Below, in pieces: positions 19,514-62,939 of a stretch of 64,000 bases of DNA. Source of the stretch: a virus. Position 1 is the stretch's first letter. Every line of letters starts with the position of its first letter. Where the stretch lies: positions 256,001 through 320,000 of IMG/VR virus record IMGVR_UViG_3300045988_180880. One strand, given 5' to 3'. The notes beneath the pieces are model-generated. The model had not been told where the DNA came from. It did no database searches and saw only the letters and a program-made list of their open reading frames with translations. The position numbers and the translations under genes are program-made.

Positions 19514-20212
19514 TTAATTAGAGTTTCGAATTGTATAATTATATTTACTATCTTTATTTGGCGTAATTCTTGTTATTTTGAATGTTTTAAGTTCTGAGGA
19601 TTTTCCACCTACTCTACTTAAATTTATAGCTCTTCCTTTCTTACCTATTCCTCTAATTACTTCTGCAACTCTATCTCCTGCAGCATCTTCTATTTTATCT
19701 CTTTGTTTCTTGAGATTATTTCCTAAACCGTAAACAGCTCCTATTCCAGCTCCAATTGCTGCATACTTTCCAACTTTTTTCACTGGTTTATATAATTTCT
19801 TTCCAGATTTAACTGTCTCGTTTAATTCCTCTAAGGGTTTATCTAAAAATTTCTTTTTATTATCTAGAAATTTTAAACCTATTTCCTTAGATTGATGTTC
19901 ATTTCTCTTAGTTTTCTCAATAAGATCTGATTTCTTTCCAGTAACTATATCTTTTACTGCCTGTTTAGCATTACTATATCTATGCTTCATTTTTAATTTA
20001 TCAGTATCTCGGTTACTTTTCTTTCGATATAATTTCTTTATAGAATCTTCTGTTACCTCTTTTTGAGGATTAAATGCTTTTTCATAGGATAATCTCCCAG
20101 AACCTGCTATCAAAGCACCCATTCCTGCTCCAACGGTTACATCAGAAGTTATATCAGATTTGCTTCTTTCTTGTTTTTCTTCTTTAGAAAATAATTTACG
20201 TCTTATGATCAT
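19514..20212 (-). CDS. N-box protein with glycine-zipper segments
   Basis: Starts MIIRRKLFS. Contains VGAGMGALIAGSG and AAIGAGIGAVYGLG. This is the only N-box gene on the minus strand. Confidence 0.55.
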   Translation of the reverse strand: MIIRRKLFSKEEKQERSKSDITSDVTVGAGMGALIAGSGRLSYEKAFNPQKEVTEDSIKKLYRKKSNRDTDKLKMKHRYSNAKQAVKDIVTGKKSDLIEKTKRNEHQSKEIGLKFLDNKKKFLDKPLEELNETVKSGKKLYKPVKKVGKYAAIGAGIGAVYGLGNNLKKQRDKIEDAAGDRVAEVIRGIGKKGRAINLSRVGGKSSELKTFKITRITPNKDSKYNYTIRNSN

Positions 20213-20733
20213 AATAAAATTCTATGTTTAATTTTTATATTTTCAAGTTCTTCTGTTTCAGGCCCATGTAAAAAGATATCCAACACTACACAATTACTTA
20301 TTTTATCTCCTAAAAGAGGATCCTTATAAATCATTGCACAGAGCTCTAAATCATTAAATAACTCATCATATCTTTTCCTATAGTTATCTAGATCTTTCAT
20401 AAGTTGTTCACCTCTTTTACTAGGATCTGAAACTAATTCCGTCATGATTATAGCATCATTTTTATCTCCCTTAATGAGATTCTTAAAATCTTCAATAATT
20501 TGATATTTTTCATATGAAGTAGAATATTTCTGAGTATCATGATTATCTGTAGAAATTAATTTTAAGAATTCATAATTACTTTCATTAAAATCTGATAAAT
20601 ACTCATTAAAGAATTTCTTTTCATATTTTGCCATCTCATTATTCCACTTTACTATCTCTGGATCTTTTCTTGATAAAGTATTCCGAGTAGCTTTAAAAAT
20701 AGCTGATTTAATTTTATCAAACATAATTAACAC
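20209..20733 (-). CDS. hypothetical protein
   Basis: 174-aa ORF with overlapping start/stop junctions. Confidence 0.5.
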   Translation of the reverse strand: MLIMFDKIKSAIFKATRNTLSRKDPEIVKWNNEMAKYEKKFFNEYLSDFNESNYEFLKLISTDNHDTQKYSTSYEKYQIIEDFKNLIKGDKNDAIIMTELVSDPSKRGEQLMKDLDNYRKRYDELFNDLELCAMIYKDPLLGDKISNCVVLDIFLHGPETEELENIKIKHRILL

Positions 20734-23628: not shown

Positions 23629-24093
23629 ATGATAATAAAGAGAAAAACAAAAAGTGTCTCCGATCTGTTCTATATATCATCAAGACCAGACTTAGATGGA
23701 GAATATATAAAACCGAAAATTAATTTGTACCCAGATGTAGGATCAGCACTTTCAGGAATATCAGCAGTTCCGGGAGAGGATACGAACATAGAAGGAGCTA
23801 CTTATTATATATACAAGCCGCTAATGGGAAGAGCCGATTCACTAGTAAAACCTGGAATAATAGAATCTCCGAAGGTATTAGTTCTCCCTGATGAATATTG
23901 GTATCTACAAGAACTCCGGCTCAGATTTATAGCGGCAGTTAAAGTCTTGGGGAGAGAAAAACTTATTGGAACTTATAGAACTGGAACTAGACAAACTCCA
24001 TCTAGAGTATATTCTTGGAGTTGGGAAGAAATTTTAGGGAAATATCAGAAGAAAGGTAAGTTAATAGAGACTGATAAAACAAAGAAAACGTGA
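23629..24093 (+). CDS. hypothetical protein (N-box variant MIIKRKTKS)
   Basis: 154-aa ORF; first gene of the plus-strand module. Confidence 0.55.
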   Translation: MIIKRKTKSVSDLFYISSRPDLDGEYIKPKINLYPDVGSALSGISAVPGEDTNIEGATYYIYKPLMGRADSLVKPGIIESPKVLVLPDEYWYLQELRLRFIAAVKVLGREKLIGTYRTGTRQTPSRVYSWSWEEILGKYQKKGKLIETDKTKKT

Positions 24094-24162: not shown

Positions 24163-24675
24163 ATGAAAATACTACGAAATAAAACATATTCTGATTCTGA
24201 CAATGAAACTCCAAAGAAAGTCGGAGAAGCTATCGGAACTGCACTAGTCGGAACAGCTGGAACTGTAGGAGCAACAGACTTAATAAAACGTGGGGCTAAG
24301 AAGTATATAACCAGTCAGGAATCAAAGAAAGCAAAAAAAGCATTTAAAGAAGGTATTAAGAAACTTGATTCAACCAGGAAAGCTAATAATTTTAAAGCAG
24401 AAGTAGCTCGTGGTGAAACTAATTCAGGAAGCGCTTTAGATCTAATTTTCCACAAAAGAAAAGTCAAGAAAGCAGATCAAGTATATAAAGCAGCTACCTC
24501 TAAAAATAATGAAGCCTATAAATCAGGTGTTAAAGCTCTTAAGAAAACTTTAATATCTAATAAAGATGCAAATATCGCCAAAAGAACAGGAAGAGTTGGA
24601 AAAATAGCTACGACTGCTGGTTTAATTGGAACAGGTATAGCAGCTGGAATGAAACTTAGAAAGAAAGATAAATAA
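24163..24675 (+). CDS. Lys-rich N-box protein with Gly/Ala-rich hydrophobic segments
   Basis: Starts MKILRNKTYSD. Contains GTALVGTAGTVGA and TAGLIGTGIAAGM. Confidence 0.55.
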   Translation: MKILRNKTYSDSDNETPKKVGEAIGTALVGTAGTVGATDLIKRGAKKYITSQESKKAKKAFKEGIKKLDSTRKANNFKAEVARGETNSGSALDLIFHKRKVKKADQVYKAATSKNNEAYKSGVKALKKTLISNKDANIAKRTGRVGKIATTAGLIGTGIAAGMKLRKKDK

Positions 24676-25431: not shown

Positions 25432-26160
25432 ATGAATAAGTACAATAAAGATGAATTAGAGAGATTAATTTTTAAAGAAAATTTATCTTATAAAGAAATT
25501 GGCAAAAAATATGGAGTATCTGGAAATACTATTAGAAAGAATGCAAAAAAGTTAGGAATAGTGTTACCTAAGAGAAGAAATATAAATCCTAATGAAACTT
25601 TTAATAAAGGAAAACAGATTCATATAGCTAACAAAAAACAAAATTCTAATAATAGTAAATTAGATCTCATATCTGATAATGATTTTATTGAAATTATCAA
25701 GACAAAGGATAATTGGAAAGATATATTAGTTTCACTTGGATATAATAAACATGGATCTAAATTTATTAGGGATAAAATAAGAAAAAGATGTTCGAATTTG
25801 GGAATAAATTTAAATCTTAAACAAAATCAACTAGATACTGTACCAATTTTATCTGTAACTAAAGGAGATTTATTTAAAAAACGTTCTAATTGGCAGAACG
25901 CTAGATCTAATATTCAAAATTCAGCAAGAAAAATATTTTTTAAGAATTGTCTTGATCCTAAATGTATAGTTTGTGGATATACTAATCATGTGGAAGTAGC
26001 ACATATAAAGGCAGTTAGTAATTTTAGTGAGGATTCATTAATATCAGAAATTAACGATATTTCTAATTTAATAGGTTTATGTCCTAATCATCATTGGGAG
26101 TATGATAATGGATTATTAGATATAAGTAAATACATAAATCATGAAAATAATAAGAAATAA
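25432..26160 (+). CDS. HNH homing endonuclease with N-terminal HTH module
   Basis: C-terminal CIVCGY...HVEVAHIKA...LCPNHHWEYDNG. The N-terminal LSYKEIGKKYGVSGNTIRKNAKKLG is shared with the 27388 and 36489 genes. Confidence 0.8.
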   Translation: MNKYNKDELERLIFKENLSYKEIGKKYGVSGNTIRKNAKKLGIVLPKRRNINPNETFNKGKQIHIANKKQNSNNSKLDLISDNDFIEIIKTKDNWKDILVSLGYNKHGSKFIRDKIRKRCSNLGINLNLKQNQLDTVPILSVTKGDLFKKRSNWQNARSNIQNSARKIFFKNCLDPKCIVCGYTNHVEVAHIKAVSNFSEDSLISEINDISNLIGLCPNHHWEYDNGLLDISKYINHENNKK

Positions 26161-26518: not shown

Positions 26519-26833
26519 ATGATTATACTTAGAAATAAGACCTATTCGCATGAAGAAGAAATTGCGAATATTGCGGCAGCTCCTGGAAGTCCAGAGTATA
26601 GCCATGAAAGAGCCGAAATAGAAAAGAAACCGGCTCAAGAAGCATCAGCAGTTCAAGAAGGTTATGAAAAAGCATCTCAGGAAATTGATAAAACAGTAGA
26701 AGAAGTAGAAATAGTTCCTGAAGCAGCTGAAGAAGCAATCGAAACAGAAGCACGTGAAGCTGGAGATTCTAACCTAGACTCTAGAAATGATGCATTAAAA
26801 ACTCTTAATGATTTCTTAGGTAATATTCATTAA
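26519..26833 (+). CDS. acidic N-box protein
   Basis: Starts MIILRNKTYSHEEE; Glu/Ala-rich. Confidence 0.5.
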   Translation: MIILRNKTYSHEEEIANIAAAPGSPEYSHERAEIEKKPAQEASAVQEGYEKASQEIDKTVEEVEIVPEAAEEAIETEAREAGDSNLDSRNDALKTLNDFLGNIH

Positions 26834-26835: not shown

Positions 26836-27054
26836 ATGATTATCCTCAGGCAAAAGAATTATTCCGGCCGAGAAAAAGTACCTCAGGCTATAGCAGAGAA
26901 GGCACGAAAATCTGGAGTAGTTCAAAAAGATTCAAATGGTGCCTGGAGAATTATTAGCCTGAAAACTTCTCCGGCCGAATATTGGGATGCACATTATGAT
27001 ACCCGTGAAGATGCTGAAAAAGCTCTAGCCGCTTATCATGCAAATAAACATTAA
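26836..27054 (+). CDS. small N-box protein
   Basis: Starts MIILRQKNYSGREK. Confidence 0.5.
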   Translation: MIILRQKNYSGREKVPQAIAEKARKSGVVQKDSNGAWRIISLKTSPAEYWDAHYDTREDAEKALAAYHANKH

Positions 27055-27387: not shown

Positions 27388-28251
27388 ATGAATGAAAGTA
27401 AATTAAGTAATGTAACAAAAGAAGAATTAGAAAAACTAATCTTTGGAGAAAAATTATCCTATGAAGAAATAGGTAGGAGATATGAAGTTTCTGGAAGTGC
27501 TATTAAAAAGAAGGCTAAAAAATTAGGTATAGAACTTCCTAAGAAAAGAGATATAAATTCTAATGAAACTTTTAATAAAGGATACTCTTTTAAGTATAAT
27601 AAGAAAGATTTAGAGAAGTATTTAGGTGAAGGAAAGAGTTATAAAGAGATTGGAAATATTTATGGAGTATCTTCATCATCTATATATAGGGCAGTTAAAA
27701 GTTTTGGATTATCACCTAAGAAAAAATCTCCTAAGAAAAAAGAGTCAAAAAATTTGAATAAACCTAAAATTATAATAAATTCTGTAGATGATAGTGTTTT
27801 TTCAGATTATGTAAAGGATAGTTTATCAATAGCAGAAGTCGCTAGATCAATTGGAATAGATAATAATAAAATTAATACTAGCGTTTATAGAGAAATTCAT
27901 AAAAGAATCGATTCTTTAAAGTTAGATACATCTCATTTTACAGGAGGTGCATGGAATGTAGGAGATAGATTTAGAAAAATAGATAAAGGATTTCCATTAA
28001 GTGAAGTTTTAGTAAAAAACTCATCATATAAATGTACTAATTCTTTAAGGAAAAAGCTATTTAATGAAGGTGTAAAAGAACGAAAGTGTGAATGTTGCGG
28101 TATAACTGAATGGAATGGAAAGCCTGCACCATTACAACTTCATCATATAGATGGAGATAATACTAATAATTCTTTAGAAAATCTTCAAATACTTTGTCCT
28201 AATTGTCATGCTCAAACAGATAATTATTGTAGTAAAAATAAAAACGTCTAA
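27388..28251 (+). CDS. HNH homing endonuclease with duplicated HTH modules
   Basis: CECCG...LQLHHIDGDNTNN...LCPNCHAQTDNY, plus two LSYEEIG / KSYKEIG HTH-like repeats. Confidence 0.8.
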   Translation: MNESKLSNVTKEELEKLIFGEKLSYEEIGRRYEVSGSAIKKKAKKLGIELPKKRDINSNETFNKGYSFKYNKKDLEKYLGEGKSYKEIGNIYGVSSSSIYRAVKSFGLSPKKKSPKKKESKNLNKPKIIINSVDDSVFSDYVKDSLSIAEVARSIGIDNNKINTSVYREIHKRIDSLKLDTSHFTGGAWNVGDRFRKIDKGFPLSEVLVKNSSYKCTNSLRKKLFNEGVKERKCECCGITEWNGKPAPLQLHHIDGDNTNNSLENLQILCPNCHAQTDNYCSKNKNV

Positions 28252-28335: not shown

Positions 28336-29148
28336 ATGTACATAAGAAGAAAAGTATTCTCACTATTACAAGACGGTGAGACAGGAGAAGAGAAGTATTT
28401 TTCTACGACCGATGTAACTTTGGATAATCTTGAAGAAAGAATTTTTAGTATTTCAATTCCAACTGAAGAAGAATTAGAACAAAGAGAATTCGGTGCTAGA
28501 CAGAGAAAACAGAATAGAAAACTAGCTAGATCTATTCACAATGCCGAGATGCAAGCAAATAAAGCAGCTAAGGCACAAGAAAAAGCAGCTAAAATAGTTT
28601 CTAATCCAGCTAATTTAGTTGATGAGAAGAAAATGGAAGAAGCTCAGAAACTTACTAAGAAAGCACAAAAAGCAGTTGAGTCTTCTAATCGTAATGCAGG
28701 TCAAGCTTCTCAACAAGTAAAGAATATCTCTAAAACTAGAAAGTCAGTTGCGACAAATCCGGGAGGTCTTGAAATTAAAAATCAAGGTGCAGGAGATATA
28801 ACTGTTAAGAAAGAAGGTGGTAATGTAACTGCTCATAAAATTGCTTCTAAGAAAAGTGGTCAGACAACAACTACTGTAAGAACAACGTCAACTAAGCCTG
28901 ATGTTGTAGTTGATAAGATGACATCCAAAGGTTCTAAGAAAGTTTCTACAGAGGCAGTAAAGAAATCCGCTGAGAAAACTCAAAAAGTTGCAGAAGTAGC
29001 TCAAAAAACAACAAAAGACTCAAAGAAGATTCTGAATGGGGCTAAAAAATTAATGAACACAAAAGCTGGTAAAATAGCTGGAGGAGTTGCTTTAGCTAGT
29101 GGTGCGATGATCGGGGCTAAAAAGTTATATGATCATAAAAAGAAATAA
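28336..29148 (+). CDS. Lys/Ala-rich N-box protein, paralog of 34367 gene
   Basis: MYIRRKVFSLLQD..GEEKYFSTTDVTL is shared with 34367. It has a C-terminal Gly/Ala hydrophobic segment. Confidence 0.55.
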   Translation: MYIRRKVFSLLQDGETGEEKYFSTTDVTLDNLEERIFSISIPTEEELEQREFGARQRKQNRKLARSIHNAEMQANKAAKAQEKAAKIVSNPANLVDEKKMEEAQKLTKKAQKAVESSNRNAGQASQQVKNISKTRKSVATNPGGLEIKNQGAGDITVKKEGGNVTAHKIASKKSGQTTTTVRTTSTKPDVVVDKMTSKGSKKVSTEAVKKSAEKTQKVAEVAQKTTKDSKKILNGAKKLMNTKAGKIAGGVALASGAMIGAKKLYDHKKK

Positions 29149-30879: not shown

Positions 30880-31451
30880 ATGTCTAAAAATGATAAATTA
30901 TTACCTGTACCATTAAAGTACACCTATCCGGTTGTAATGGAAATTTCTCCAAGTAACAAACCATTGAAAAATTAGACATCTATTGTAATAGGTGTGGAAA
31001 GTTTTTTAAACAAACAGCCTATGATCATGTTTATGGATCTGGATGTCCTGATTGTAATAAATTAGGAGGAAAAAGCGCATTAAATGTATTAAAGTGGTTA
31101 GAAACAAATCAAATTGATTATACAAGGGAATATTCTATAAAATTAAATAATAGGAACATTAGAATAGATTATGTTTTTAATTATAATAATTGTTGTTTGT
31201 GGATAGAGTATAATGGACTACAACATTATAAGAAAGTAGATTATTTTCATAAAACAGATGAAGGTTTTCTTAAACAATTAAATAGAGATAATGAAGTTAG
31301 AAAATATTGTAAAGAGAATAATATCATCCTTATAGAAATTCCGTATACATATAACACTTATGAAAAAGTAGAACAATTATTAAATCGAGTAATTTTAAAT
31401 GGAGAGGATATAAACTCTATTATAGATTATTCAAAATTATATAAAATATGA
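30880..31451 (+). pseudogene. deleted/frameshifted zinc-ribbon + Vsr/DUF559-like homing endonuclease
   Basis: The 31-codon N-terminus MSKNDKLLPVPLKYTYPVVM matches the start of the 41879 gene, then stops at TAG 30973. The -1 frame continues from 30972 (LDIYCNRCG...GCPDCN...WIEYNGLQHY...RDNEVRKYCKENNIILIEI) to 31451. The central ~250 aa of the full-length paralog are missing. Confidence 0.6.
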
Positions 31452-50741: not shown

Positions 50742-51878
50742 ATGAGTGATGTAATTTACAGAGGTCTTAAACTCTCTTCTAATAAATGTAGGTATTTTCA
50801 AGTAAAAGAAGGACAAATAAGCTCTATAGTAGAGGATACTTCAAGATCTACTCTCACTCTAACTTATTCTCCAGGAAGTACTTCTGGAAGTTTATCAGAT
50901 CTTTTAGGAATACCGTGTACTGAAAAAAGAATCGACATGCTCCCTACAGGACTTCCTAAATTATTTAAAAATACTTATGTTACATTAAATGGACTTAAGT
51001 TAAGAAAATTAACTTATGATCCACATACTATTAATATAGTTATTGTAAATGACTCAGAATCTAGAGTTATCCAAAACTATAATTATACAACAATAGTAGT
51101 TTCGGAAGGAGATTATAAAAATCCTGAGTTTATAAATTTCTTGTTTTACTCTGGAAATCTTATATATCTTCAACCTATTGGACCTAGACCAAGCTGTTAT
51201 GAGATAAGAAATTTTCCTAAAATTATAATTAGTTCAGATGATGTTACACTTGAATCTGAATCTGAAACAATATTTACATTAAGAAGGAAATATAATGATT
51301 ATGTTATAAGAGCTGTAGATTATCAAGATCAATTTATTCTAGAATTACGTAAAATTTTAGATGATTATGGTTTAGAGTTAGTTAGAATTAATAAAGAAAC
51401 TACATTAACTAAAACATCACATGTTGTTTATCAATTTCTTCAGACTCCAGTGAAAGATAATCATCCTAAGTATTCTGATGATAAAGTAATGCAGCATAAA
51501 ATACCAGTTGAATTTTATCTAAGAAGTACTGATATGCCATTATTCTTTGACTTTAAAAATAGATATATGAATGTCACATTACTTACTAATTTCTGTGAAT
51601 TCAAAACATCAGATAGATATGGACAAAGATGGACAGCTGCAATAAAATGGGGAGGAATAACTGAAGATTTTAACCAGACATATCAACAAGATGATAATTC
51701 AAATTTCTCTTATCAATGTCAATTCAGATGTGAACTATTTTTCTATGAAGTAATTGATGATAGATATAAATTCCTAGAAGAAATAGTTCAGAATATAGAG
51801 TTTGAACGAAATAATCCAGATTATCATTATGAAGTTCCGGTTGATACTGAAACAACAATTATAAACAAAGGGTTATGA
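50742..51878 (+). CDS. hypothetical virion-module protein (378 aa)
   Basis: Long ORF whose stop overlaps the next start. No N-box. Confidence 0.55.
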   Translation: MSDVIYRGLKLSSNKCRYFQVKEGQISSIVEDTSRSTLTLTYSPGSTSGSLSDLLGIPCTEKRIDMLPTGLPKLFKNTYVTLNGLKLRKLTYDPHTINIVIVNDSESRVIQNYNYTTIVVSEGDYKNPEFINFLFYSGNLIYLQPIGPRPSCYEIRNFPKIIISSDDVTLESESETIFTLRRKYNDYVIRAVDYQDQFILELRKILDDYGLELVRINKETTLTKTSHVVYQFLQTPVKDNHPKYSDDKVMQHKIPVEFYLRSTDMPLFFDFKNRYMNVTLLTNFCEFKTSDRYGQRWTAAIKWGGITEDFNQTYQQDDNSNFSYQCQFRCELFFYEVIDDRYKFLEEIVQNIEFERNNPDYHYEVPVDTETTIINKGL

Positions 51879-52246
51879 TAAATTTTAGAAAGAAGAAATA
51901 CCTTATCCAAAATTTAATGCCGGACGCTATTGAATATTTAAAGAAACAAGGATTACGGCCTAATATTATAACTCCAGAGCAAGCAGATAGCGTTAGTAGA
52001 GTTAATTCTAAGGCTATGGTTTTAGTTTCATTTATAAAAAATGAGTCTGGATATTATCAAATTCAAGTACAGGATAAGGAATTATACAATTATACTCAAA
52101 AATTAATCAAAGATATTTTTAGAATGAGAATAACTGATATTAATAAAGAAACCAGAGTAATCACAGCAGAAACTGATCACTTAGGAATAGCTTTTGATAT
52201 TATAGAAATTCTCGCTACAAAATATAATTTATCAGTTGTGGCATGA
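51875..52246 (+). CDS. N-box protein
   Basis: Starts MINFRKKKYLIQN. Confidence 0.5.
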   Translation: MINFRKKKYLIQNLMPDAIEYLKKQGLRPNIITPEQADSVSRVNSKAMVLVSFIKNESGYYQIQVQDKELYNYTQKLIKDIFRMRITDINKETRVITAETDHLGIAFDIIEILATKYNLSVVA

Positions 52247-52953
52247 TTAAATTTAGACAGAAAGAATTTACAGAATATGATGCAATGAGAAGTCTTTATG
52301 TAAAACTTATGCGATATTCTGATAGAAATAAATTCGGAGTAATAGATACTAGTGCATTAATTCCTGTTCTTAGAGGAAATAATGTAGTAATCGAAAGATT
52401 TGTAATTAGTACTTCTATGTTTGGAAAAGATAAATATAGAATGTATCTAAAAATTGGTGCCAAAGCAAAGTTACCAGATGAGGTTAGACTTCCAGGTAAA
52501 ACATATGATAAACGTCTTGGAAATATGCAATTAAACGTAAGTCATTCTATATTTGCGCCAAAAGATAGTGATCCAAATTGGAATAATAACAATAATGGAG
52601 GAAATAATAATACTTCTTTAGGAGACACTTCTGGACCTAGGAATGATAATCCTGAAGAAAGAAGAGGTGGAAAAAAGAAAGAAAAGAAGTATTCAGAATT
52701 TCCAGGATCAATTTTAGAGCAAAGAGAATTTAAGAGTAAAGGCGGTGATAAACAATATCCCTATCTATCTGGTTCATTCTCTCCTTCCTTTGATCTATCT
52801 TATGAAGTTTCTGAATTGCTTGGAGAGGCTATCAAATATGATAAAAAATCAAGATCATTGGTCTTAGAATTCAAATCTATCGAAGATGCTATTAATGCAT
52901 TGAATATATTACCCTTCGGATTAGGTTATAAGATATATTTACTTAATGCATGA
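52243..52953 (+). CDS. N-box protein with Asn/Gly low-complexity insert
   Basis: Starts MIKFRQKEFTEYD. Contains NWNNNNNGGNNNTS. Confidence 0.55.
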   Translation: MIKFRQKEFTEYDAMRSLYVKLMRYSDRNKFGVIDTSALIPVLRGNNVVIERFVISTSMFGKDKYRMYLKIGAKAKLPDEVRLPGKTYDKRLGNMQLNVSHSIFAPKDSDPNWNNNNNGGNNNTSLGDTSGPRNDNPEERRGGKKKEKKYSEFPGSILEQREFKSKGGDKQYPYLSGSFSPSFDLSYEVSELLGEAIKYDKKSRSLVLEFKSIEDAINALNILPFGLGYKIYLLNA

Positions 52954-53174
52954 TGATTGTAAAGAGATTTTCTCAAACCAAGATATTAAATACTAATAAC
53001 CCAGCTCTTGGTTTCACTAAAGGGAGAAAATATGATACAGATATGGATAGACTGGGTAGAATGAATACTTCTCAACGTGAATTAGCTGGAATCGGTAATT
53101 TAGGAAAAGAAATGAGAAAATTAAATCAAGAATTAAATCGTGGAGGAAGAGGTAAATGGCAAGATACAGATTAA
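52950..53174 (+). CDS. small N-box protein
   Basis: Starts MMIVKRFSQTKIL. Confidence 0.5.
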   Translation: MMIVKRFSQTKILNTNNPALGFTKGRKYDTDMDRLGRMNTSQRELAGIGNLGKEMRKLNQELNRGGRGKWQDTD

Positions 53175-53443
53175 AAAGAAAATGTTACAATGCACTAACT
53201 GAAGCTGCCGGAAATACACTAGGAGGAGTTACAGAAGGAGTTGGTAAAGCTCTTGATAATAAAGTAGCCGGAATTGCTGGTGGTGTTTTAGGAGCTACTA
53301 AATTAGGAGGAACTATTGGAACAATGATAGGGGGACCATTTGGAAGTATTTTAGGTATGGGAGCTGGTTATCTCTTAGGTTCTGCAGCTACTAGAGGTCT
53401 TGGAAAAGGTCTTAAAACTGCCGGTCAAGATATGCAAACTTAA
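53156..53443 (+). CDS. N-box glycine-zipper protein
   Basis: Starts MARYRLKRKCYNAL. Contains AGIAGGVLGATKLGGTIGTMIGGPFGSILGMGAGYLLGSAA. Confidence 0.55.
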   Translation: MARYRLKRKCYNALTEAAGNTLGGVTEGVGKALDNKVAGIAGGVLGATKLGGTIGTMIGGPFGSILGMGAGYLLGSAATRGLGKGLKTAGQDMQT

Positions 53444-53462: not shown

Positions 53463-54494
53463 ATGATTAAGTTTAGACAAAAAGAATTTTTTTGGGGAAT
53501 GGCTTTAAATGCTGCAGGGGCTATTGGTACAGGTCTTTCTCTAAAACAAGGTTCTGATCAAATGAAACAAGCTGAGGAACAAGCAGCACAGGCAGAGGAA
53601 CAAAATAGAAAGATGACCAAAGCTTTAAATAAAATTGCAGAGAACGCAAAAAATAATCCACAAGCAGCACAACAAGCAGCAGATGTAATGGGACAAAAAC
53701 AGTTTGCTCAAATAAATTTTGCAAAACTTACAGCAACTCTTAAGAATAATAAAACTTTAGGAAATGCTAAAGGTCTCGCTAAAGATGTTGGTAAAATTGT
53801 GTGGAAAGGAAAAAATAAGCTGATTGGTGGAACTATGATGGGAGCTACAATGGCAGGAGCTTCATATCTTACTGATAAAGCAATTCAAAAAGATATGAAG
53901 AAAAATGGAATGCCTCTTGAAAAAACCTATTCTGCTGGATCTATAATGAAAGCAGTAAAAGGTACTGGAAAAGTTTTAGGAGAAGCTGCAAAAAAAAATA
54001 AAGGAACGTTAATAACGATGGCTGCTCTAGGTTCTGCTCCCATGGCTCTCGGATACTCTGCTGAAAAAGCTCAATATAAAGATCAGATGGCATTAACTCA
54101 GAGAAACTATGCAGTCCCTGGAGTAATGGCAGTTAAAAGATTACTTACTGGCGCTTCTAAATCTGTAAGAAATTCACAGATATTTAAAACTCCTGGACAA
54201 ACAATTTTAGGTGGACTTTCTAATTTATCTGGCGGAGGTGGTCGAAAAGGTGTATACAAATTCGGTCATCAGTTAAATAGATATGGAAAACACTCAGGTT
54301 CAGTATGGTCTCAAAAAGCAGGTAAATTCATTATGGATAACCCCAAAACAGCCTTAGCAGGTAGTATTCCAGTCGGTGCTGCAGTTTTAGGAGCAACATG
54401 GGGAACTGGAGAGAAAATAGTAAATAAAACAGCTCGGGCTCTAGATAAAGATGCTTTCAAATATCAAGATTCTAAAAATCAAGAAATACAATGA
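53463..54494 (+). CDS. N-box Gly/Ala/Lys-rich protein (343 aa)
   Basis: Starts MIKFRQKEFFWG and has several Gly/Ala hydrophobic stretches. Confidence 0.55.
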   Translation: MIKFRQKEFFWGMALNAAGAIGTGLSLKQGSDQMKQAEEQAAQAEEQNRKMTKALNKIAENAKNNPQAAQQAADVMGQKQFAQINFAKLTATLKNNKTLGNAKGLAKDVGKIVWKGKNKLIGGTMMGATMAGASYLTDKAIQKDMKKNGMPLEKTYSAGSIMKAVKGTGKVLGEAAKKNKGTLITMAALGSAPMALGYSAEKAQYKDQMALTQRNYAVPGVMAVKRLLTGASKSVRNSQIFKTPGQTILGGLSNLSGGGGRKGVYKFGHQLNRYGKHSGSVWSQKAGKFIMDNPKTALAGSIPVGAAVLGATWGTGEKIVNKTARALDKDAFKYQDSKNQEIQ

Positions 54495-54904
54495 TTATAA
54501 AAAGAAAATTATTCACTAAATACGACGATACTGATAATCTTAAAAGAATGAAGGATTCAGATATTCTTGCTGAAAAACCAAAACAGGCTCCTGGATATGG
54601 TTCTGTAGCTGGGGCTGCTCTTGGTGGGGCTGCTCTTGGTGGAACAGTTGGTTCTGTAGCTGGAGCTTTTGGAAAGAATAAGGCAGGTCGTAGTTTACTC
54701 GGAAGAATGGGTAAAGGTGGAAAAACTGGATTAGTTGTTGGTGGTCTTCTAGCAGGTGGAATGGCTCTTCGAAATAGAAATAAACAAGCTGAAAATAATG
54801 AATGGTATAATAAAAGACTTAATTATGCTCAAAGACAGGCTAGACGAAGAGAAAAACAAGATTGGAAGACGAATATGACTCAAAGAGATGGTTATTCCTA
54901 TTAA
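54491..54904 (+). CDS. N-box glycine-zipper protein
   Basis: Starts MIIKRKLFTKYDD. Contains GYGSVAGAALGGAALGGTVGSVAGAFG. Confidence 0.55.
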   Translation: MIIKRKLFTKYDDTDNLKRMKDSDILAEKPKQAPGYGSVAGAALGGAALGGTVGSVAGAFGKNKAGRSLLGRMGKGGKTGLVVGGLLAGGMALRNRNKQAENNEWYNKRLNYAQRQARRREKQDWKTNMTQRDGYSY

Positions 54905-55901: not shown

Positions 55902-58816
55902 ATGGCACAATGGACTGAAACTCTCGAACCGTATGTAAAAGTTATAGAGAGAGTACATACCGCAGCTCTTAATCCTACTGCAGGTGAAAGTTTAATTATC
56001 GGAGTGACTTTAATTTCTGATGCAGGCCCAGCAGTTCCTACACTGATCTCTAGTCAATCTGAATTCTTAAAAACTTATGCTTCAGGGGACTTAACAGAAG
56101 ATTATATGGCATCCTTGAATAATCTTTATCATGATGCTAATAATACAGGAGATAAAAATGTAGCTGCAACAATGTGGATGAATGCTTATAGATTGGCTGG
56201 CTCTAATGTTATGCTGGTTTGTAGAGCATCTAAAGCTAACGATATCTACTACGCTAAACCCATGACTAAAACTGATTATAGTACATATATCCTTAGAGAT
56301 GGTGCTTTAATGAAGGGATTTAGAGATGCTGATAAAGGTGTCGTTAAGTTTGTTCTTGATATTGATGGTGATGATGCAGAACATGATCAAGATGGATGGT
56401 CAATTAATTTGAATGGAGTAGGTATTCTTGGTAATCGTACCACCGATGATGGTCCTCAATATGATTACTATGTAAGAACTCTCCCCGACTTAGTAAATCA
56501 AATGAATGAAACTAATAAATTCTTCTCTCCATCTTATAAATTCTTCACAGATCCTAATAATATCATCTCTGAAAATGAAACAACTGATCCCGATAAAGCA
56601 AAGGCAGTTGTATTCTATGAACTTTATCTAGGACAGGATATGCTAGATACTTCAGACTCTAGATGTCCACTAGGAAAGCAGTATATCGTGATTTGTGAAC
56701 CTGATTGGACTAGTGATAATCCTAATCAAAAACTTATAGATATTAATGCTTCCGCTTGGTCTGGTTTCGAAGAACAGAAATATTATGCAGTTAATCAATA
56801 TAACTCTAATACTGATCTGAGAGTTAGAATTAGACGTTTTAATCATGATGCAGTAGTTACCAAAGAATTAACTAACCCCGCTTTGAACGAAAACTCTGAT
56901 TCTCCTTATATGGTACTATCGGCCGTTCTAGATACCTATACTAAGAAAGGAACAGTAGAACCGTCAGAAAGTATCCTACAGCGAGATTTTTATGAAGTCG
57001 CTGTTCTTGATCCTAATATTTCTGACGAAGTACAGTTCTTTAATATAGGTAAAGTAACCGGCCGTGGAGATATGGAAGTATCAGAACTCAATGAACTCCT
57101 AAGTATGATTCAACTTCAACTCCCTGACGATATGAGAGAGCTTGGATTGAACTACTATGGATACGGAGCTGATGATAAAGTATGGGTAGAACTTGATCCT
57201 AATGACCCAAATGCAGGTTCTTATAAGCAAACAGTTTCTTCAATGACTGATCTTTACAACTCAATAGGTATGTCAGTTGGAGATGTTTACCGAGTTGGAT
57301 CTGGAAGTTCATATAAGTACTATGAATATCAAGAAAATGGTGGAGATCAAGTTTATGCAAAATTAGGCGTAGATCCAACTGAAACAGATATTCTTGACGT
57401 ATCTGAATCGGATCTTAAGAAAGCACTTGACGAAATCAATATTCAGGAAATTTATGTGGTTGAAGGATTATGTGACCTTGGAAATACATCACTAAGTTTC
57501 CAGAATTACTTGGCTAATATGGCTATCAACTCTAACTATTTCTATCCAATATCAACAGTTCAGAGCACAAATTATATGACTATCGCTAATAATGCAACTA
57601 AGATAGCACAAGATTCATATAAACTCTATCTATCTGCACCTTGGGATATCGACTCTGGTACATTTGGATGGAAATATTATTGCTCACCTGCTGTTGTTTA
57701 CTGGGAAGCTGTAGCTAGAAACCGTAGAAATAATGCAGAATTTGCTCCTGTACTTGGACAAACTAATGGTATTGTTCAGTATCAGAGACCTATGACAGAG
57801 TTTAATAAAAAAACTCGTCAACTTCTATTATCTAAACGAGTAAATACTGTACTCTGGAATTATCAAACTAATGCTTGGAACATGAATGATAAACAAAATT
57901 GTCCAATTTATTGAAATTGAATTTTTATGAACTGCTGGGATTTATATAAAAAAAATAAAAATCAGCAAAAAGGATTACTAATATAAATCCTTTCTCAACG
58001 ACTAAGTATAAAAGATAAATAAATTTTATTATTTTTCAAGATATAGTCTAGCGAAATTACCAAATAATTTTCTAAAACGAATTATACTAAGCAAAGTGTG
58101 GATAATATTGTTTCAGATGAAGGTAACTCTCGTTTAGCTATTCGTATCTCAAAAGCTATGCCTGTACTACTTAAACAGTATATAGGCTGGAGAATTGCAC
58201 CAAAACTATGGGAAAGTGCGATTGGAACTATCGATTACTGGTTTAAATCAACTATTCTCCCAATGTCTTATAATATCGATGATTACCGTATTATCATCGA
58301 TGAGACAAATAACCCTGTTCAAATTCAGCGTAAATAATTGCGCCTTGGATTTTTATATTACCAAGAAAAATAAGAGAATTGCTGGAAGATAATAAAATAA
58401 ATCAGCAAAGAAAGTTTACAAAAATTTTCTCTCAACGACTATGTACTTATTAAAATGATATAGTCTGATCTTAAATATTAATCTTATATTTAAGTTTAAC
58501 AATAATGCAGAATAAAATGGTGGTTAACGTTTTGGTTAGATACCAGAGAGCTTTGAAATATGTCATCGTAAAGTATATGCGATTATTATACCAATTGCTG
58601 GAACTTAATAAATCCAAAGAATCAGCAAAAATAGATATAATTCTATTTCTCAACGACTAGATGTATAATTAAAATTTCATGAAGATTTTAAAAGATATAG
58701 TCTGAACATGAGTAGATAATACTTAGCAAACATATTGATATCACGACATTTTCGACGTTGGTATGCAACTTGCAGTCTCAGAGTACGAAGATACTAGAGG
58801 AGCAGCCCTTGAATAA
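55902..58816 (+). CDS. tail-sheath-like protein, 4 exons
   Basis: join(55902..57909,58099..58331,58508..58569,58738..58816). The N-terminus GESLIIGVTLISDAGPAVPTLISSQSEFLKTYASG resembles sheath proteins. So do the C-terminal blocks PAVVYWEAVARNRRNNAEFAPVLGQTNG, KRVNTVLWNYQTNAWNMND and NKMVVNVLVRYQRALKYVIV. The family call is by eye; the exon 2 start may be 58102. Confidence 0.6.
57910..58098 (+). ncRNA. mini group I intron class A, P2-less (about 189 nt), sheath intron 1
   Basis: P1 AAUUU/GAAUU, P3 UUUUAU/AUAAAA, P6 AGGAUU/AAUCCU. Core blocks P GAACUGCUGGGA, Q AAUCAGCA, R UCAACGACUA, S AAGAUAUAGUC. The 3' boundary is G 58098 or G 58101. Confidence 0.7.
58332..58507 (+). ncRNA. mini group I intron class A (176 nt), sheath intron 2
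   Basis: P1 GCGU/GCGC, P2 CUUGG/CCAAG, P3 UAAG/CUUA, P9 CUUAAAUAU/AUAUUUAAG. Core blocks P GAAUUGCUGGAAG, Q AAUCAGCA, R UCAACGACUA, S UGAUAUAGUC. It ends AAUAAUG. Confidence 0.8.
58570..58737 (+). ncRNA. mini group I intron class A, P2-less (168 nt), sheath intron 3
   Basis: P1 AUCGU/GCGAU, P3 UAUAC/GUAUA. Core blocks P CAAUUGCUGGAAC, Q AAUCAGCA, R UCAACGACUAGA, S AAGAUAUAGUC. It ends AUAUUG. An alternative 3' site after G 58725 would give a different C-terminal peptide. Confidence 0.75.
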
Positions 58817-58876: not shown

Positions 58877-60175
58877 ATGCAAAAATTTACAAAAGATGAA
58901 ATAATATATAATATTATTTCAAAATTAACTAAAGATATTGAATTCCTAGGATTAGAAAACTATTCAAAAGATATATCTACAAAAAAATTAAAAATTATTT
59001 TAAGATGTAAATTACATAATATAAGTAAAATTATAAAATATTCTAGTTTTATATTAAATGGATGGCATTGTCCTGAATGTTCAAAAATAAAAAGAACACT
59101 TCCAGAAAATATAGCAATAGAAAGAATACAAAAATCCATATTAAAGAAAAATAATGAAGGGAGTAATATATCTTTTTTAGGATTTGTAAATTTTTGGAAA
59201 GGCTCATCAACAAAATTGATTTTAAAATGTAATATTCATAATATTATTTGGAAAACAACGACCTATAATGGATTTATTTCGAATAATTTAATTGGTTGTC
59301 CTGAATGTTCAAAAGAAAGAAAAAAAAGAAAATTAACTAATTTAGAAGCAGAAAATAATATAATCGAATTTCATAAATCATCTTCTACAAATGAATCGTC
59401 AATATTTTGTAATATTCATAATAGCTACACAGGTTATAATTCTCCAGTTGAATTAGTTTGTTATAAACATGGAAAATTTTCATGTTATTATAGTTATTTA
59501 ATGACTGATAAAAGTAGAAATATTATACTATGTCCTAAATGTAGAGAATTATTTGAACGTGAACAGGAAAAGAAAAGATATCATAACTTAATAATAGATA
59601 GAGTAAATCATTTAAATAAAAAATATAATATATCTTTAGAATTTTTAGGATTTAAAGAAGAATTTAATTATCAAAATACATATCTAATACTAAAATGTAA
59701 TATTCATAATCATATTTGGGATACTACTAGACTAGGTATATTTTTAAAACATGAAGGAAAATACTGTATATATTGTTCAAAAACTAGTAGTATTTCGTTT
59801 ATGGAAAATTCTTTATACTCTATTTTAAATAGTTATTATTTAAACATAATTCGTCAATATAAATTAATAATAAATAATAGAATATTTTATTTAGATTTTT
59901 ACATACCAAAATTAAATGTAATAATAGAGTATGATGGAAAACAACATTATGAATTTACTTCTTTCTTTCAACCCACATATCAAAATTTCGTAAATCAAGT
60001 TAACCGAGATAGATGTTTAGAACAATATTGCAAAGAAAATAATATAAAACTTCTTCGAATTTCTTATAAAGACAATAATAGAATCCCTGAAATCATAAAG
60101 ATATTTTTCGAAGAAGGAAAAGATATAACAACAAAAGTAGAACCTAAATTATTACCAGTATTATATCATGGATAA
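58877..60175 (+). CDS. freestanding homing endonuclease: four zinc-ribbon repeats + Vsr/DUF559-like PD-(D/E)xK domain
   Basis: Four CxxH...CPxC units (CKLHN..CPECS, CNIHN..CPECS, CYKHG..CPKCR, CNIHN..CIYCS). These are followed by YLDFYIPKLNVIIEYDGKQHY...NRDRCLEQYCKENNIKLLRISY. Confidence 0.65.
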   Translation: MQKFTKDEIIYNIISKLTKDIEFLGLENYSKDISTKKLKIILRCKLHNISKIIKYSSFILNGWHCPECSKIKRTLPENIAIERIQKSILKKNNEGSNISFLGFVNFWKGSSTKLILKCNIHNIIWKTTTYNGFISNNLIGCPECSKERKKRKLTNLEAENNIIEFHKSSSTNESSIFCNIHNSYTGYNSPVELVCYKHGKFSCYYSYLMTDKSRNIILCPKCRELFEREQEKKRYHNLIIDRVNHLNKKYNISLEFLGFKEEFNYQNTYLILKCNIHNHIWDTTRLGIFLKHEGKYCIYCSKTSSISFMENSLYSILNSYYLNIIRQYKLIINNRIFYLDFYIPKLNVIIEYDGKQHYEFTSFFQPTYQNFVNQVNRDRCLEQYCKENNIKLLRISYKDNNRIPEIIKIFFEEGKDITTKVEPKLLPVLYHG

Positions 60176-60908
60176 AACATTATTAATAGATCTTAAAAAG
60201 AAGTTATTTATCAGGAGTGCTCTTATAAGTTTGACGTCTCTTGATGAAATTTTAGCCTTGAACGATTTTTTGAGTCCAGATGAGATATTACTGGAGATAA
60301 TTAAGGAGTCGTTAAGAGAATTTGAACATACCTTGCCATTGATTCTGGAGATGAAAATGAACCGTTCTCAGATGTGTAGTTGTGAGAACATGGGACTTGA
60401 AGGGTATTGTGAGATTAAGAGTAATTTTACATTATTTCTTGATTGTAAAATATCGGAAGATCAGATTATATTAATTCCAAACTCTATTCCTATGTACAGG
60501 GTGGGGTCTATATCTTATCCAGCTCCAGGAAACTATACTTACTTCACAGATTATAGACGTCCTTATGTTTTTATGATGGATATGCCCAGTTACGATCAAT
60601 TCTATATTAGAGGAATATGTAGTCGACCAATAATTCCTGACTTTCTTCCTGATAAAACGTTTAATCCAGGATCATCTAAAGCAGCTATTTATTGGCTGAA
60701 TGTAGAAGAAGGGTCGAGAGGTACATTTTTTATGGATCTCTGTATGACTCATTTACTAGACTATATTAGGAACCTAAAGGCTTCATTAATGTTACCTAAT
60801 GTTGGTTTGGAAGTTCTTAATAATATCGACGCTGCATATCAAGAGCTTAGATCTAGGTGTGATAATTATATACTCCAATCTGGATGGTATGGAGATTTAC
60901 TTGTTTAA
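60168..60908 (+). CDS. hypothetical virion-module protein
   Basis: 246-aa ORF overlapping the upstream stop. Confidence 0.55.
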   Translation: MDKTLLIDLKKKLFIRSALISLTSLDEILALNDFLSPDEILLEIIKESLREFEHTLPLILEMKMNRSQMCSCENMGLEGYCEIKSNFTLFLDCKISEDQIILIPNSIPMYRVGSISYPAPGNYTYFTDYRRPYVFMMDMPSYDQFYIRGICSRPIIPDFLPDKTFNPGSSKAAIYWLNVEEGSRGTFFMDLCMTHLLDYIRNLKASLMLPNVGLEVLNNIDAAYQELRSRCDNYILQSGWYGDLLV

Positions 60909-60919: not shown

Positions 60920-61381
60920 ATGATAATAAAAAGAAAGTTGTATTCTCTTACAGGAACTAGAGTATTGGCTGGATTTAATAAAAAAGTTCTTAGAAAGACT
61001 CCAATGGCTGCAAAAAGATCCGCCATAAAAACACAAAATAAAGTCTTAGAAGCTACAGCAAGAGGTTTAAATAAGATAGAAGGAGTAAAAATGGCGGCAA
61101 ATCAAGCAGCCATTAATCCAGGAAGAGTTGTAAATACTAAAGTAATTCAACCATCTATAGAAGCACCTATAACTTCTGTAGCTATGAAAACAGTACCTAT
61201 TCCTGGAACATCTGCTTTAGTTAGTGTAGTAGGAAAACCAGAGAAAACTATATGGAAAAAGATTGGAGTTGGTGATAAAATGTCTAAGGCTGCATCTAAG
61301 TATGTAGATAGTAAAGGAGGTAGAGTTGTAGAAGATGTAGTAAATAGCTCGACTAATTATTTAAAAAATCTTATGGTATGA
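60920..61381 (+). CDS. N-box protein
   Basis: The in-frame ATG at 60920 gives MIIKRKLYSLTGT (the ORF track starts at 60884). Confidence 0.55.
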   Translation: MIIKRKLYSLTGTRVLAGFNKKVLRKTPMAAKRSAIKTQNKVLEATARGLNKIEGVKMAANQAAINPGRVVNTKVIQPSIEAPITSVAMKTVPIPGTSALVSVVGKPEKTIWKKIGVGDKMSKAASKYVDSKGGRVVEDVVNSSTNYLKNLMV

Positions 61382-62571
61382 CAAAATTTAGACAAAAACA
61401 ATATACAATTCCGGAGGGTCACTATACAGGTCCTAAGGATATGGATAAGGTTCCAGGAGCTATAGAAGTAATCGGAAAATCTGCCTTAGCTGGTGCTGGT
61501 ATTGGAGGAGTTACAGGTAGTCTCCTAAAAGATGCTAGTATTACCAGTGGTGCTATAACTGGAGGTAAATATGGAACTATAGCAGGTGTAGTATTAAAAT
61601 TCTTCTTAAACTATTTACACAATCCAATGTCATCTATTAAATTTCAAGAAGTAGATAAATTAATTCGTCGTGAGTTTGGTATTTATAGAGCTTCTGGAGT
61701 AACTATAGGAGATTCATTAGATAAAAGAGCAAAAATAGATGAGAAGTTTAGTTTTAATGATCGAAATGTAACAGCTTATAAATTAAATTTTTCAATACAA
61801 GATAATTCCATTACCATGTATACTTTTGGAATGACCTCTAAGGAATTGGAAAAGACTTCAGATAGTTTAGACTATTACTGTAAGAAGTATACAGGGATGG
61901 AATATAGTAGTTATGCAATCAATTCTAGAAATAATTCTTATTCAGTGGCTATTGTATTTACAAATTATCAAGTTATAGCCAACTTTATAATGGAACTCAG
62001 TAATACTCTTGGAGTAAAAATAAATCTTCTTGATAACAAAGCTTTAGTTGAAAATAGAATTAAGGAAGTTGAACAGAAGGATTTTTCAGTTAAGTCTTTA
62101 AATAAATATGATTTAAAGAAATTCATTGGAAAGACAGGAAAATTTCTATTTTCCGGTAAATCTGAAGATCTTATCGGTTTAATTTATAGTGCTGCAGTAA
62201 CTTTTTCTAATGATCCTGATATAATTCCTACATATCGAGGAGATTTTGGAAATAAGTACTTAGAAAATAGCCTTAAAAGACTTCGTTATGTTGAAGGTTT
62301 AGATTATACTGTTGGGGAATTTGGTGGAGATATAGGTATTAATATGTCAATGATCTCTGGAATATTCGTAATAACAGTAAATAAAGAGGATACCGACGAA
62401 CTTAAGAAGATTGATTCTATTTTCTGGAATCACTTAAAAACGATAGTAAATAGGGTAGATACTGGAAAAGTAGTTGTATATAACTACACAATTAAAACAA
62501 GAAATGAATTTGATTTTATCTTAAAAAAATTCATGTCAACTGATGTAAAACCTAATATATTTGAAAAATGA
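61378..62571 (+). CDS. N-box protein (397 aa)
   Basis: Starts MTKFRQKQYTIPEG. Has the Gly-rich segment ALAGAGIGGVTGSL followed by a globular domain. Confidence 0.55.
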   Translation: MTKFRQKQYTIPEGHYTGPKDMDKVPGAIEVIGKSALAGAGIGGVTGSLLKDASITSGAITGGKYGTIAGVVLKFFLNYLHNPMSSIKFQEVDKLIRREFGIYRASGVTIGDSLDKRAKIDEKFSFNDRNVTAYKLNFSIQDNSITMYTFGMTSKELEKTSDSLDYYCKKYTGMEYSSYAINSRNNSYSVAIVFTNYQVIANFIMELSNTLGVKINLLDNKALVENRIKEVEQKDFSVKSLNKYDLKKFIGKTGKFLFSGKSEDLIGLIYSAAVTFSNDPDIIPTYRGDFGNKYLENSLKRLRYVEGLDYTVGEFGGDIGINMSMISGIFVITVNKEDTDELKKIDSIFWNHLKTIVNRVDTGKVVVYNYTIKTRNEFDFILKKFMSTDVKPNIFEK

Positions 62572-62939
62572 TAGTACCTAGAATTCGATATTTTTCAGAT
62601 TTACAAGCTAGAAAGATGATAACGAAATTAACAGAGAAATTGGATAAAGATCGTATCGGGGATTATGAAGTTTCTAGTAAAATTCCCAAAGATGTAATTA
62701 GTATATATCCTGATCCATCTTCAATTAAAATATATATTCCAAAAGATCTTGAATATAGTCAGTACGAAATTGATGATTTCATTAGATCTATGGCAGCTCA
62801 TATTAGAACAACTACGATCCTAGAGAGAGATATATATGTAATGAAACTATCAGGATCTCTTACTTTTGAACAGATATATAAATTAATACGTGAAATAATT
62901 GATACAGAAGAATTTTGTACTATTATTGACTGTGATTAA
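62568..62939 (+). CDS. N-box protein
   Basis: Starts MIVPRIRYFSDLQ. Confidence 0.5.
   Translation: MIVPRIRYFSDLQARKMITKLTEKLDKDRIGDYEVSSKIPKDVISIYPDPSSIKIYIPKDLEYSQYEIDDFIRSMAAHIRTTTILERDIYVMKLSGSLTFEQIYKLIREIIDTEEFCTIIDCD

Follow-up and report, generated by a model that had tools for sequence, protein, structure and literature searches.

In phage T4, capsid-targeting sequences (CTSs) of 10–20 residues stand at the N-termini of unrelated internal proteins and are removed by the prohead protease gp21, which also cuts gp23, gp22, gp67/68 and itself (PMC5694885). In phage SPN3US, all of the substrate cleavages leave N-terminal propeptides, often with several copies of the motif, A-x-E (PMC10052503, PMC5694885). 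Here we analyse a 64,000-nucleotide stretch of viral DNA (IMG/VR record IMGVR_UViG_3300045988_180880, positions 256,001 to 320,000 of that record; this whole stretch is 'the window' below), in which a short basic-aromatic box opens numerous proteins of the virion module. Judging from where its core, [KR]-x-[FY]-[ST], recurs in the encoded proteins, we consider it probable that this core is the recognition motif, and probably also the cleavage motif, of the phage's own prohead protease, and that the box serves as a short propeptide or tag.

When the N-termini are lined up by their aromatic residue, with the Ser/Thr that follows it taken as position 0, the box reads hydrophobic(−6) [KR](−5) x K(−3) x [FY](−1) [ST](0), and the matching columns are enriched 12-fold in Arg, 6-fold in Lys, 19-fold in Phe and 10-fold in Ser. 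An earlier note on this DNA had reported such a box on about 29 proteins, listing 28 N-termini, all of which translate as written there and begin where it placed them. Of the 28, 19 have the core in full ([KR]-x-[KR]-x-[FY]-[ST] or K-x-[FY]-[ST]); five have another residue after the aromatic (Ala in 33672, Gly in 50443, Asn in 53156, Leu in 51875 and Phe in 53463); and three are weak, 23629 having no aromatic, 40850 being out of register and 54919 having Ile in place of Phe. When a strict regular expression for the box was applied to the first 16 residues of each protein, it matched 25 of the 59 genes at 19.5–63.5 kb, 24 to 25 of them real, since 63356 (minus strand) is probably a spurious open reading frame (ORF). 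Four of the note's examples, namely 23629, 40850, 54919 and the protease, discussed below, are either weak or better dropped. The strict box occurs in none of the 24 genes of the left module of the window and in one of the 60 genes of three further non-structural stretches (L057, the relative L129 with 48% identity, and the 10 kb that precede the window), which makes one in 84 (Fisher p = 1e-10) and bears out the statement that replication-module proteins lack it; among internal windows, the pattern occurs at a background rate of 1.4%. The shared box is real, and chance falls far short of explaining it.

The codons of the box vary: Ser is encoded by both TCN and AGY, Arg by AGA, CGN and AGG, and the Leu and Ile codons differ as well. 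The conservation therefore lies at the amino-acid level, and we reject a nucleotide-level signal; the initiation preference that the earlier note had named as a possible refutation, with boxes also in non-structural genes, is not what these codons and the single box among 84 such genes look like. Shared ancestry of whole genes is likewise rejected: beyond residue 15 the only BLASTP-similar pair is 28336/34367, and the 26 proteins compared fall into 25 BLAST-unrelated families, in agreement with the note's description of the downstream sequences as unrelated. A Sec, Tat or lipoprotein signal peptide was also rejected, as there is no hydrophobic h-region and polar or acidic residues follow the box; in 25 of 26 proteins no 15-residue stretch of the first 50 residues reaches a Kyte-Doolittle mean of 1.5, the exception being the Gly/Ala-rich 50075.

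The box is retained in relatives with 81–95% capsid-protein identity, and over orthologue pairs conservation is 66% in the box, 46% in the next 30 residues and 43% in the rest. Among 118 distinct orthologue N-termini of the 54491 family, K-R-K-x-[FY]-T hardly varies apart from its free x position, and the prefix alternates between MII and MARYIL. The same shape holds for the motif as such: a free spacer between K and [FY], a small residue after [FY] (S > T > G/A/N), and a free position thereafter (R, G, E, N, F, V, K, D, H and others follow the Ser). In this shape it is similar to the P3-x-P1 motifs of T4 (L/I-x-E), SPN3US (A-x-E) and herpesvirus assemblin (V/L-x-A|S). The back-translated strict pattern finds at least 58 stretches in IMG/VR, on contigs that share metagenomes and naming series with the capsid matches, and every one that we inspected is a relative; in 596 Gb of bacterial genomes it gives 15 scattered matches, mostly non-genic.

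The core is not confined to N-termini. Right of 19.5 kb, K-x-F-S occurs 36 times, as compared to 3.5 ± 1.8 when each protein is shuffled (maximum 10 in 1000 shuffles), and 26 of the 36 copies lie beyond residue 15; in the left module there are 2 copies against 1.7 expected. The internal K-x-[FY]-[ST] copies are concentrated in a few proteins, namely the protease linker (4), a 297-residue protein (7), a 785-residue protein (9) and the leader of the capsid protein (2):

43348–45083, + strand: prohead protease gene with a T4 gp21-like fold and a C-terminal helical domain, in four exons (43348–43569, 43761–43994, ~44130–44756 and 44922–45083)
44262–44498, + strand: protease linker, predicted to be disordered, with the sites KTFS, KQFS, KSFS and KDFS
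45144–46037, + strand: scaffold-like protein of 297 residues, with RRKLFS twice in tandem at the N-terminus and another five K-x-[FY]-[ST]
46057–48414, + strand: very acidic repeat protein of 785 residues, with 9 K-x-F-S and several R-x-F-S
48497–49945, + strand: major capsid protein, with KMFS at 48605–48616 and KTFS at 48674–48685

In the capsid protein the sites are KMFS at residues 37–40 and KTFS at residues 60–63, with none in the remaining 419 residues. K37, F39 and S40, as well as K60, F62, S63 and G64, are invariant in five capsid proteins, including that of L098, whose first 120 residues are 45% identical to those of the window and whose clade has a protease that matches the window-clade profile at E ~1e-53 only. 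The N-terminal sequence before the second site has diverged and varies in length; directly after the site, the sequence is almost unchanged, FS|G(Y/V)(A/T)E(T/M)PLLS.QYFNA.VAS. Divergence before the site and conservation after it are the pattern expected of a maturation cut, which would remove a leader of 62–63 residues. From S63 the capsid protein reads SGYAETPLLSTQYFNASVASYVSSFAGYMSIER, and from G64 it reads GYAETPLL.... Examples of motif peptides are MIIKRKLFSKEEK and, for the second capsid site, LLQKTFSGYAE.

The earlier note had placed a protease gene at 43348, which is correct for its start, the ORF there being only the first exon of an intron-split gene; intact orthologues have 405–431 residues. 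The AlphaFold2 (AF2) model of the homologue P0002, built from 35 sequences, has a confident domain at residues 1–177 (predicted local distance difference test score, pLDDT, ~90), a linker at 178–252 (pLDDT below 50) and a helical C-terminal domain. The top three Foldseek matches of this model in the PDB are all T4 gp21 (5jbl; probability 1.0, E 2.5e-4 to 6e-4, target-normalised template-modelling score 0.55–0.62), and PHROG 207, 'head maturation protease', gives a weak score (E 0.049). Of the candidate catalytic residues, H49, S133 and D159 are invariant in the 35 protease homologues and H84 is present in at least 90%; the S133–D159 spacing of 26 resembles what we take to be the T4 spacing. 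The first nine residues, MKFIAKLFS, which had been counted among the boxes, are probably not one, because they form strand β1 of the confident predicted fold (pLDDT ~94).

Across the 35 homologues, which are 47–81% identical to the reference, the linker varies in length and the four sites stand out in it as near-invariant islands. A profile search of 1.8 billion representative proteins yielded 238 relatives of the protease, and in the distant ones the linker is longer, opens with [KR]-x-[FYM]-S and contains several K-x-F-S; homologues at E 1e-30 to 1e-57 retain the sites in the form [KR]-x-[FYM]-S. At three distant loci that encode the protease, [KR]-x-F-[ST] occurs near the N-termini of the portal-like, acidic, capsid and some small proteins (for example MANFFKDLVKSFTF, MSNSLKEMFRTFSY, MKKTRFMSKLFSD and MNNLRSFSAK), and the core motif therefore travels with the protease family. 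The C-terminal helical domain of the protease (44175–45083 in the window) occurs in distant clades on separate scaffold-like proteins (L094 2914–3786, L098 2366–4381 and L100 8622–9485; hmmsearch E 1e-29 to 1e-36), where the same ...FSV..(S/T)...R site precedes the domain.

Both acidic proteins between the protease and capsid genes are rich in sites. In the 785-residue protein, whose N-terminus has R[LM]FS in relatives, there are three repeats of about 110 residues, the first two of which each hold KEFS ... KFFS ... RLFS; if the motif is a cut site, this protein would yield acidic peptides of about 10–100 residues. In the 297-residue protein a CxxC...CxxC zinc-ribbon-like segment (weak Pfam match, E ~0.005) directly follows the tandem boxes; it is kept in L026 and L029 and absent from L031 and L035.

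The motif is restricted to virion-module genes, and the predicted fold of the protease matches that of gp21. Every identifiable protein that bears a site is a head protein, and the identifiable tail and replication proteins (sheath, baseplate-like, terminase, replication genes) all lack an N-terminal site. Taken together, a gp21-type protease, sites at the capsid boundary, in the scaffold-like proteins and in the protease linker, and N-terminal tags reproduce the T4 scheme, as well as that of SPN3US with its multi-copy N-terminal propeptides, and the motif is thus most likely the recognition motif. The earlier note had offered three options for the box, a head-targeting signal, a propeptide or a protease-recognition signal, and it is the last that gains from the in silico evidence of the capsid leader, the protease linker and the two acidic scaffold-like proteins. 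By analogy with T4, we infer that the sites are cut, that the N-terminal copy targets proteins to the head, and that the tagged proteins reside there.

In such a scheme, an N-terminal propeptide of 8–13 residues, analogous to the T4 CTS, would be present on every protein with hydrophobic-[KR]-x-K-x-[FY]-[ST] at its start, and these proteins would be co-assembled into the prohead core. Once the protease is activated, the tag would be clipped off; simultaneously the capsid protein would lose its first 62–63 residues, the two acidic scaffold-like proteins would be chopped to short peptides, and the protease would be freed from its C-terminal domain. The tagged proteins (two GNATs, many glycine-zipper proteins and many of unknown function) would then be internal head proteins, possibly ejected with the DNA. 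The cut could fall within F|S, with Ser at P1' as in herpesvirus assemblin, or after the motif, as in T4 and SPN3US; both fit the sequence.

Several points weigh against this interpretation. The T4 and SPN3US proteases cut after Glu, and the motif has no conserved Glu or other acidic residue, so that the interpretation requires a changed specificity. The box is found on nine of the ten genes that separate the capsid gene from the sheath gene, and further box genes adjoin baseplate-like genes elsewhere in the genome; should any of the box proteins be neck or tail parts, a protease confined to the prohead would be no explanation for them. The canonical tail proteins (sheath, baseplate-like proteins and a 1157-residue protein) have no N-terminal box. 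The extended prefix of the MIIKRK type is found in the window's clade only and is absent from the distant clades, where some small neighbouring genes have no site at all; with sites present there and the prefix missing, the prefix needs an explanation of its own. A tblastn search of GenBank phages with the protease gave no match. Finally, removal of 8–9 residues and a retained peptide look alike in silico.

As compared to the T4 CTSs (of IPI–III, Alt and gp24), the box is alike in being a short N-terminal peptide common to unrelated proteins that ends in the cleavage motif of the protease (here a putative one), and in that the motif also occurs in the capsid leader, the scaffold proteins and a protease of the gp21 fold. 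It differs in having no similarity to MKTYQEFIAE, the motif being K-x-F-S rather than hydrophobic-x-Glu (L/I-x-E in T4), in the much larger number of tagged genes (at least 24 in 44 kb, and more elsewhere in the genome), and in a protease that is fused to a helical scaffold-like domain; targeting and cleavage are predicted roles here. With phiKZ, 201phi2-1 and SPN3US (gp175/gp245) it has in common a huge myovirus with a gp21-type protease; in those phages, cleavage takes place at N-terminal propeptides that hold several copies of the motif, the substrates being the capsid and portal proteins together with many internal or ejection proteins (PMC10052503). Those propeptides, however, are mostly longer than 100 residues and share no box, and their motif ends in Glu; GenBank phage searches detected no sequence relationship to these phages. 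Herpesvirus assemblin, of a fold class related to gp21, cuts at (V/L)-x-A|S. Its sites resemble ours in a specified P3, a free P2 and, for a putative F|S cut, a Ser after it, and it releases itself from a scaffold-like C-terminal part, as proposed here, but it belongs to a eukaryotic virus, has two sites on one polyprotein and knows no N-terminal cargo tag.

Of the other explanations, an uncut docking peptide deserves most consideration, even if we think it unlikely. The box would be a short linear motif that binds the capsid interior, the scaffold or the helical domain of the protease, with encapsulin-like loading and with multivalent binding through the repeated copies in the scaffold-like proteins. 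Encapsulin cargo-loading peptides are short terminal peptides that bring unrelated cargo to an HK97-fold shell, but they are usually C-terminal, have another consensus, stay uncleaved and involve no protease. Docking would suit the position of the motif in disordered or terminal segments, often repeated, as well as the C-terminal helical bundle of the protease, whose weak Foldseek neighbours include the peptide-binding bundles of FAT and talin (E > 0.01), and the presence of that helical domain on separate scaffold-like proteins in distant clades. Against it, the second capsid site lies exactly at the boundary of a fast-evolving leader and the conserved mature protein, the usual signature of a maturation cut; the four invariant sites between the protease domain and the C-terminal domain would fit self-release; and a gp21-type protease needs substrates, for which we saw no other conserved candidate motif. 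Docking and cleavage are, in any case, not mutually exclusive: the T4 CTS does both. Cleavage by a host protease similar to Prp, modelled on Firmicutes phages such as 80alpha, we regard as quite improbable. The N-termini of the 80alpha capsid and scaffold proteins mimic the extension of ribosomal protein L27, and the host Prp cuts them after Phe. The likeness lies in a short N-terminal leader cut after Phe and before a small residue, resembling the ...FF|A site that we take Prp to use, and box proteins encoded among tail genes would be within reach of a cytoplasmic host enzyme. Prp is, however, a host cysteine protease of Firmicutes that acts on only two phage proteins with another leader sequence, the present phage has its own gp21-like protease with the same sites in its linker, the few scattered matches of the strict box in bacterial genomes revealed no such host protein, and to our knowledge L27 of the Bacteroides/Phocaeicola group has no cleaved extension.

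We give very little credence to a translation-initiation or codon effect, in which A/U-rich first codons (Ile, Lys, Arg-AGA, Phe) would be preferred in highly expressed late genes without a Shine-Dalgarno sequence. The scarcity of such sequences (6 of 73 genes), the A/T-rich leaders with A at −3 and the A/U-rich codons of the MII-K-R-K prefix are what this effect would predict; yet synonymous codons are used freely (Ser TCN or AGY, Arg AGA or CGN), one position favours Arg 12-fold even though Lys codons would be richer in A, the same core occurs deep inside proteins, and the early and replication genes checked in this phage and a related one lack the box. Least credible of all is phosphorylation. 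While [KR]-x-K-x-[FY]-[ST], an S/T acceptor preceded by basic residues at positions −3 and −5, resembles a basophilic Ser/Thr kinase consensus, so that the box would mark the substrates of a phage or host kinase, and the only literature match for a box string (KVKRFS) is in a list of CaMK2 substrates, the 'acceptor' is also G, A or N in clear boxes and in orthologues, no kinase was identified, and the sites at the capsid boundary and in the protease linker are left unexplained. Recognition by the phage's own prohead protease remains the reading that we prefer.

The phage of the window matches the published Jug (Jumbo gut) phages of Bacteroides and Phocaeicola (Chen et al. 2025, PMC12363816), for which these two genera are the predicted hosts and group I introns of ~206 nucleotides have been reported (PMC12363816). 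The features in common are human-gut sources, size, starts with A at −3 and no Shine-Dalgarno sequence, and genes broken up by group I introns of ~200 nucleotides and by HNH genes. The window has ~30% G+C, the standard genetic code and 10 tRNA genes; its capsid gene has 100% identical matches on IMG/VR contigs of 316–378 kb, and homologous proteins are carried by contigs of up to ~430 kb. In the A/T-rich leaders, position −3 is A for 50 of 73 genes and position −1 is T for 47 of 73, a start-region pattern that, together with the few Shine-Dalgarno-like sequences, fits a Bacteroidota host. Among GenBank phages, neither nucleotide nor protein searches turned up a relative, the single weak match of the capsid protein being to a coliphage; Pfam and PHROGs searches with about 50 proteins gave almost nothing except GNAT, HNH and weak baseplate and terminase hints; and PDB sequence searches with the capsid, sheath, portal-like and 378-residue proteins were empty.

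Prohead-protease propeptides and CTSs are already known as a kind. In the literature that we searched, the Jug phage paper included, we found no description of the consensus, of the implied specificity, of such a protease fused to a scaffold-like domain or of so many tagged genes: a literature search for box strings found nothing relevant, in line with the earlier note's statement that no phage signal with this consensus had been described, and 'N-termin' does not occur in the text of PMC12363816, so that the box is not described there. More tentatively, and with less confidence than in the recognition motif itself, we suggest that proteases of the gp21/assemblin fold in uncultured huge Bacteroidota phages may have switched from Glu to Lys-x-Phe/Tyr-Ser specificity, and that in the Jug phages the site may have become a portable tag of 8–13 residues that loads dozens of unrelated cargoes into the capsid and processes them for delivery into Bacteroides, acetyltransferases and membrane-active glycine-zipper proteins among them. 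Almost no virion genes of these phages can be annotated at present. If our interpretation is right, it would attach a first functional label, in each genome of this very prevalent gut phage, to dozens of genes of unknown function, make the packaged and ejected proteome readable from sequence alone, including the enzymes that travel with the DNA into the host, offer a tag for loading foreign proteins, and add a new substrate specificity to the gp21/assemblin protease fold.

The box genes and their neighbours outside the capsid-protease region are as follows:

19514–20212, − strand: box gene MIIRRKLFS, 232 residues, glycine-zipper-like body
23629–24093, + strand: weak box gene MIIKRKTKS, no aromatic
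24163–24675, + strand: box gene MKILRNKTYS
26519–26833, + strand: box gene MIILRNKTYS
26836–27054, + strand: box gene MIILRQKNYS
28336–29148, + strand: box gene MYIRRKVFS, with KYFS and RIFS also within the first 40 residues
29691–30149, + strand: box gene MMKVKRFS, glycine-zipper-like body
31448–31528, + strand: exon 1 of the portal-like gene, MKKSETIFQKLFSG; later exons at ~31694–32545, 32721–33065 and 33231–33653
33672–34037, + strand: box gene MIIKRKLFA
34042–34134, + strand: ORF of 30 residues, MIKEKTFT; a similar small ORF is present in L031
34131–34364, + strand: box gene MKIKRFS
34367–34951, + strand: box gene MYIRRKVFS, paralogue of 28336, with further RYFS, RTFS and KDFS
37389–38372, + strand: box gene MKVKRFS, GNAT acetyltransferase
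40850–41218, + strand: weak box gene MIILRKQKY, GNAT acetyltransferase
41323–41640, + strand: box gene MLRVKRFS
50075–50440, + strand: box gene MASTFRLKRKLYS; the true start is 50075, not 50000
50443–50691, + strand: box gene MATYKLKRKNFG
51875–52246, + strand: box gene MINFRKKKYL
52243–52953, + strand: box gene MIKFRQKEFT
52950–53174, + strand: box gene MMIVKRFS
53156–53443, + strand: box gene MARYRLKRKCYN
53463–54494, + strand: box gene MIKFRQKEFF
54491–54904, + strand: box gene MIIKRKLFT, 137 residues
54919–55872, + strand: degenerate box MAKFKPKKI, with an internal KIFS and a full box, MITFRRKDFS, at about residue 100
55902–57914, + strand: exon 1 of the tail sheath gene, no N-terminal box
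60920–61381, + strand: box gene MIIKRKLYS; the true start is 60920
61378–62571, + strand: box gene MTKFRQKQYT
62568–62939, + strand: box gene MIVPRIRYFS

In these intron-rich genomes, which are hard to annotate, the box settles gene starts such as 50075 and 60920. The N-terminus ...IFQKLFS that the earlier note had attributed to the portal is present at 31448; we could not confirm the portal identity of this gene, a candidate by size and synteny only, and family searches of the protein (Pfam, PHROGs, PDB sequence) gave no family. Pfam and PHROGs searches with the small box proteins yielded no annotation either. Glycine-zipper-like segments occur in many of the box proteins, which also include two GNAT acetyltransferases; such bodies fit packaged or ejected proteins, without being proof of it. 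The exact 54491 protein sequence is found on at least 1000 contigs and appears in NCBI nr as 'MAG TPA: NADH dehydrogenase [Bacteriophage sp.]', a name for which we found no support. Orthologues of 54919 have 336 residues (L026) and 540 residues (L029), a difference in length that could reflect gene fusion or fission, or an internal processing site.

The 791-residue protein that begins with the exon at 55902–57914 is the tail sheath, its AF2 model matching T4 gp18 in Foldseek (E 6e-13). It contains SKFFSPSY, nearly invariant across 30 homologues, which fits K-x-F-S, probably by structural coincidence. The protein of 246 residues encoded downstream of the sheath gene, past an HNH gene (60168–60908 for the 246-residue protein), may be the tail tube; its residues 8–17, DLKKKLFIRS, are box-like and are kept in L029 and L035, the Phe being followed by Ile instead of Ser.

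Ten copies of a conserved, intron-like core (TGCTGG.. / ATCAGCA / CAACGACTA / ATATAGTCT), whose elements resemble what we take to be P, Q, R and S of group I introns, are present in the window, together with HNH and possibly paralogous genes:

31573–31664, 32585–32692, 35662–35772, 43622–43730 and 44002–44097, + strand: intron-like core copies
44783–44900, 57933–58049, 58380–58466 and 58596–58703, + strand: intron-like core copies
7547–7658, − strand: intron-like core copy
41879–43327, 58877–60175, 25432–26160, 27388–28251 and 36489–37097: HNH and possibly paralogous genes

The copies that we checked against intact orthologues lie inside insertions of 165–191 nucleotides that split the portal-like, protease, 35097 and sheath genes. 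Rfam recognised no group I intron at 31.4–45.2 kb, even at E ≤ 1. An alternative genetic code was rejected as the cause of the gaps between ORFs, since recoding TGA or TAG adds little coverage; the gaps are due to introns. Two HNH homing-endonuclease genes match PHROG 559 (E 1e-28 and 1e-41), and three further genes share an N-terminal 'K..ELE.LIF.E..SY.EIG', a likeness that suggests that they are paralogous. The HNH and 'K..ELE' genes are interspersed among the virion and tRNA genes.

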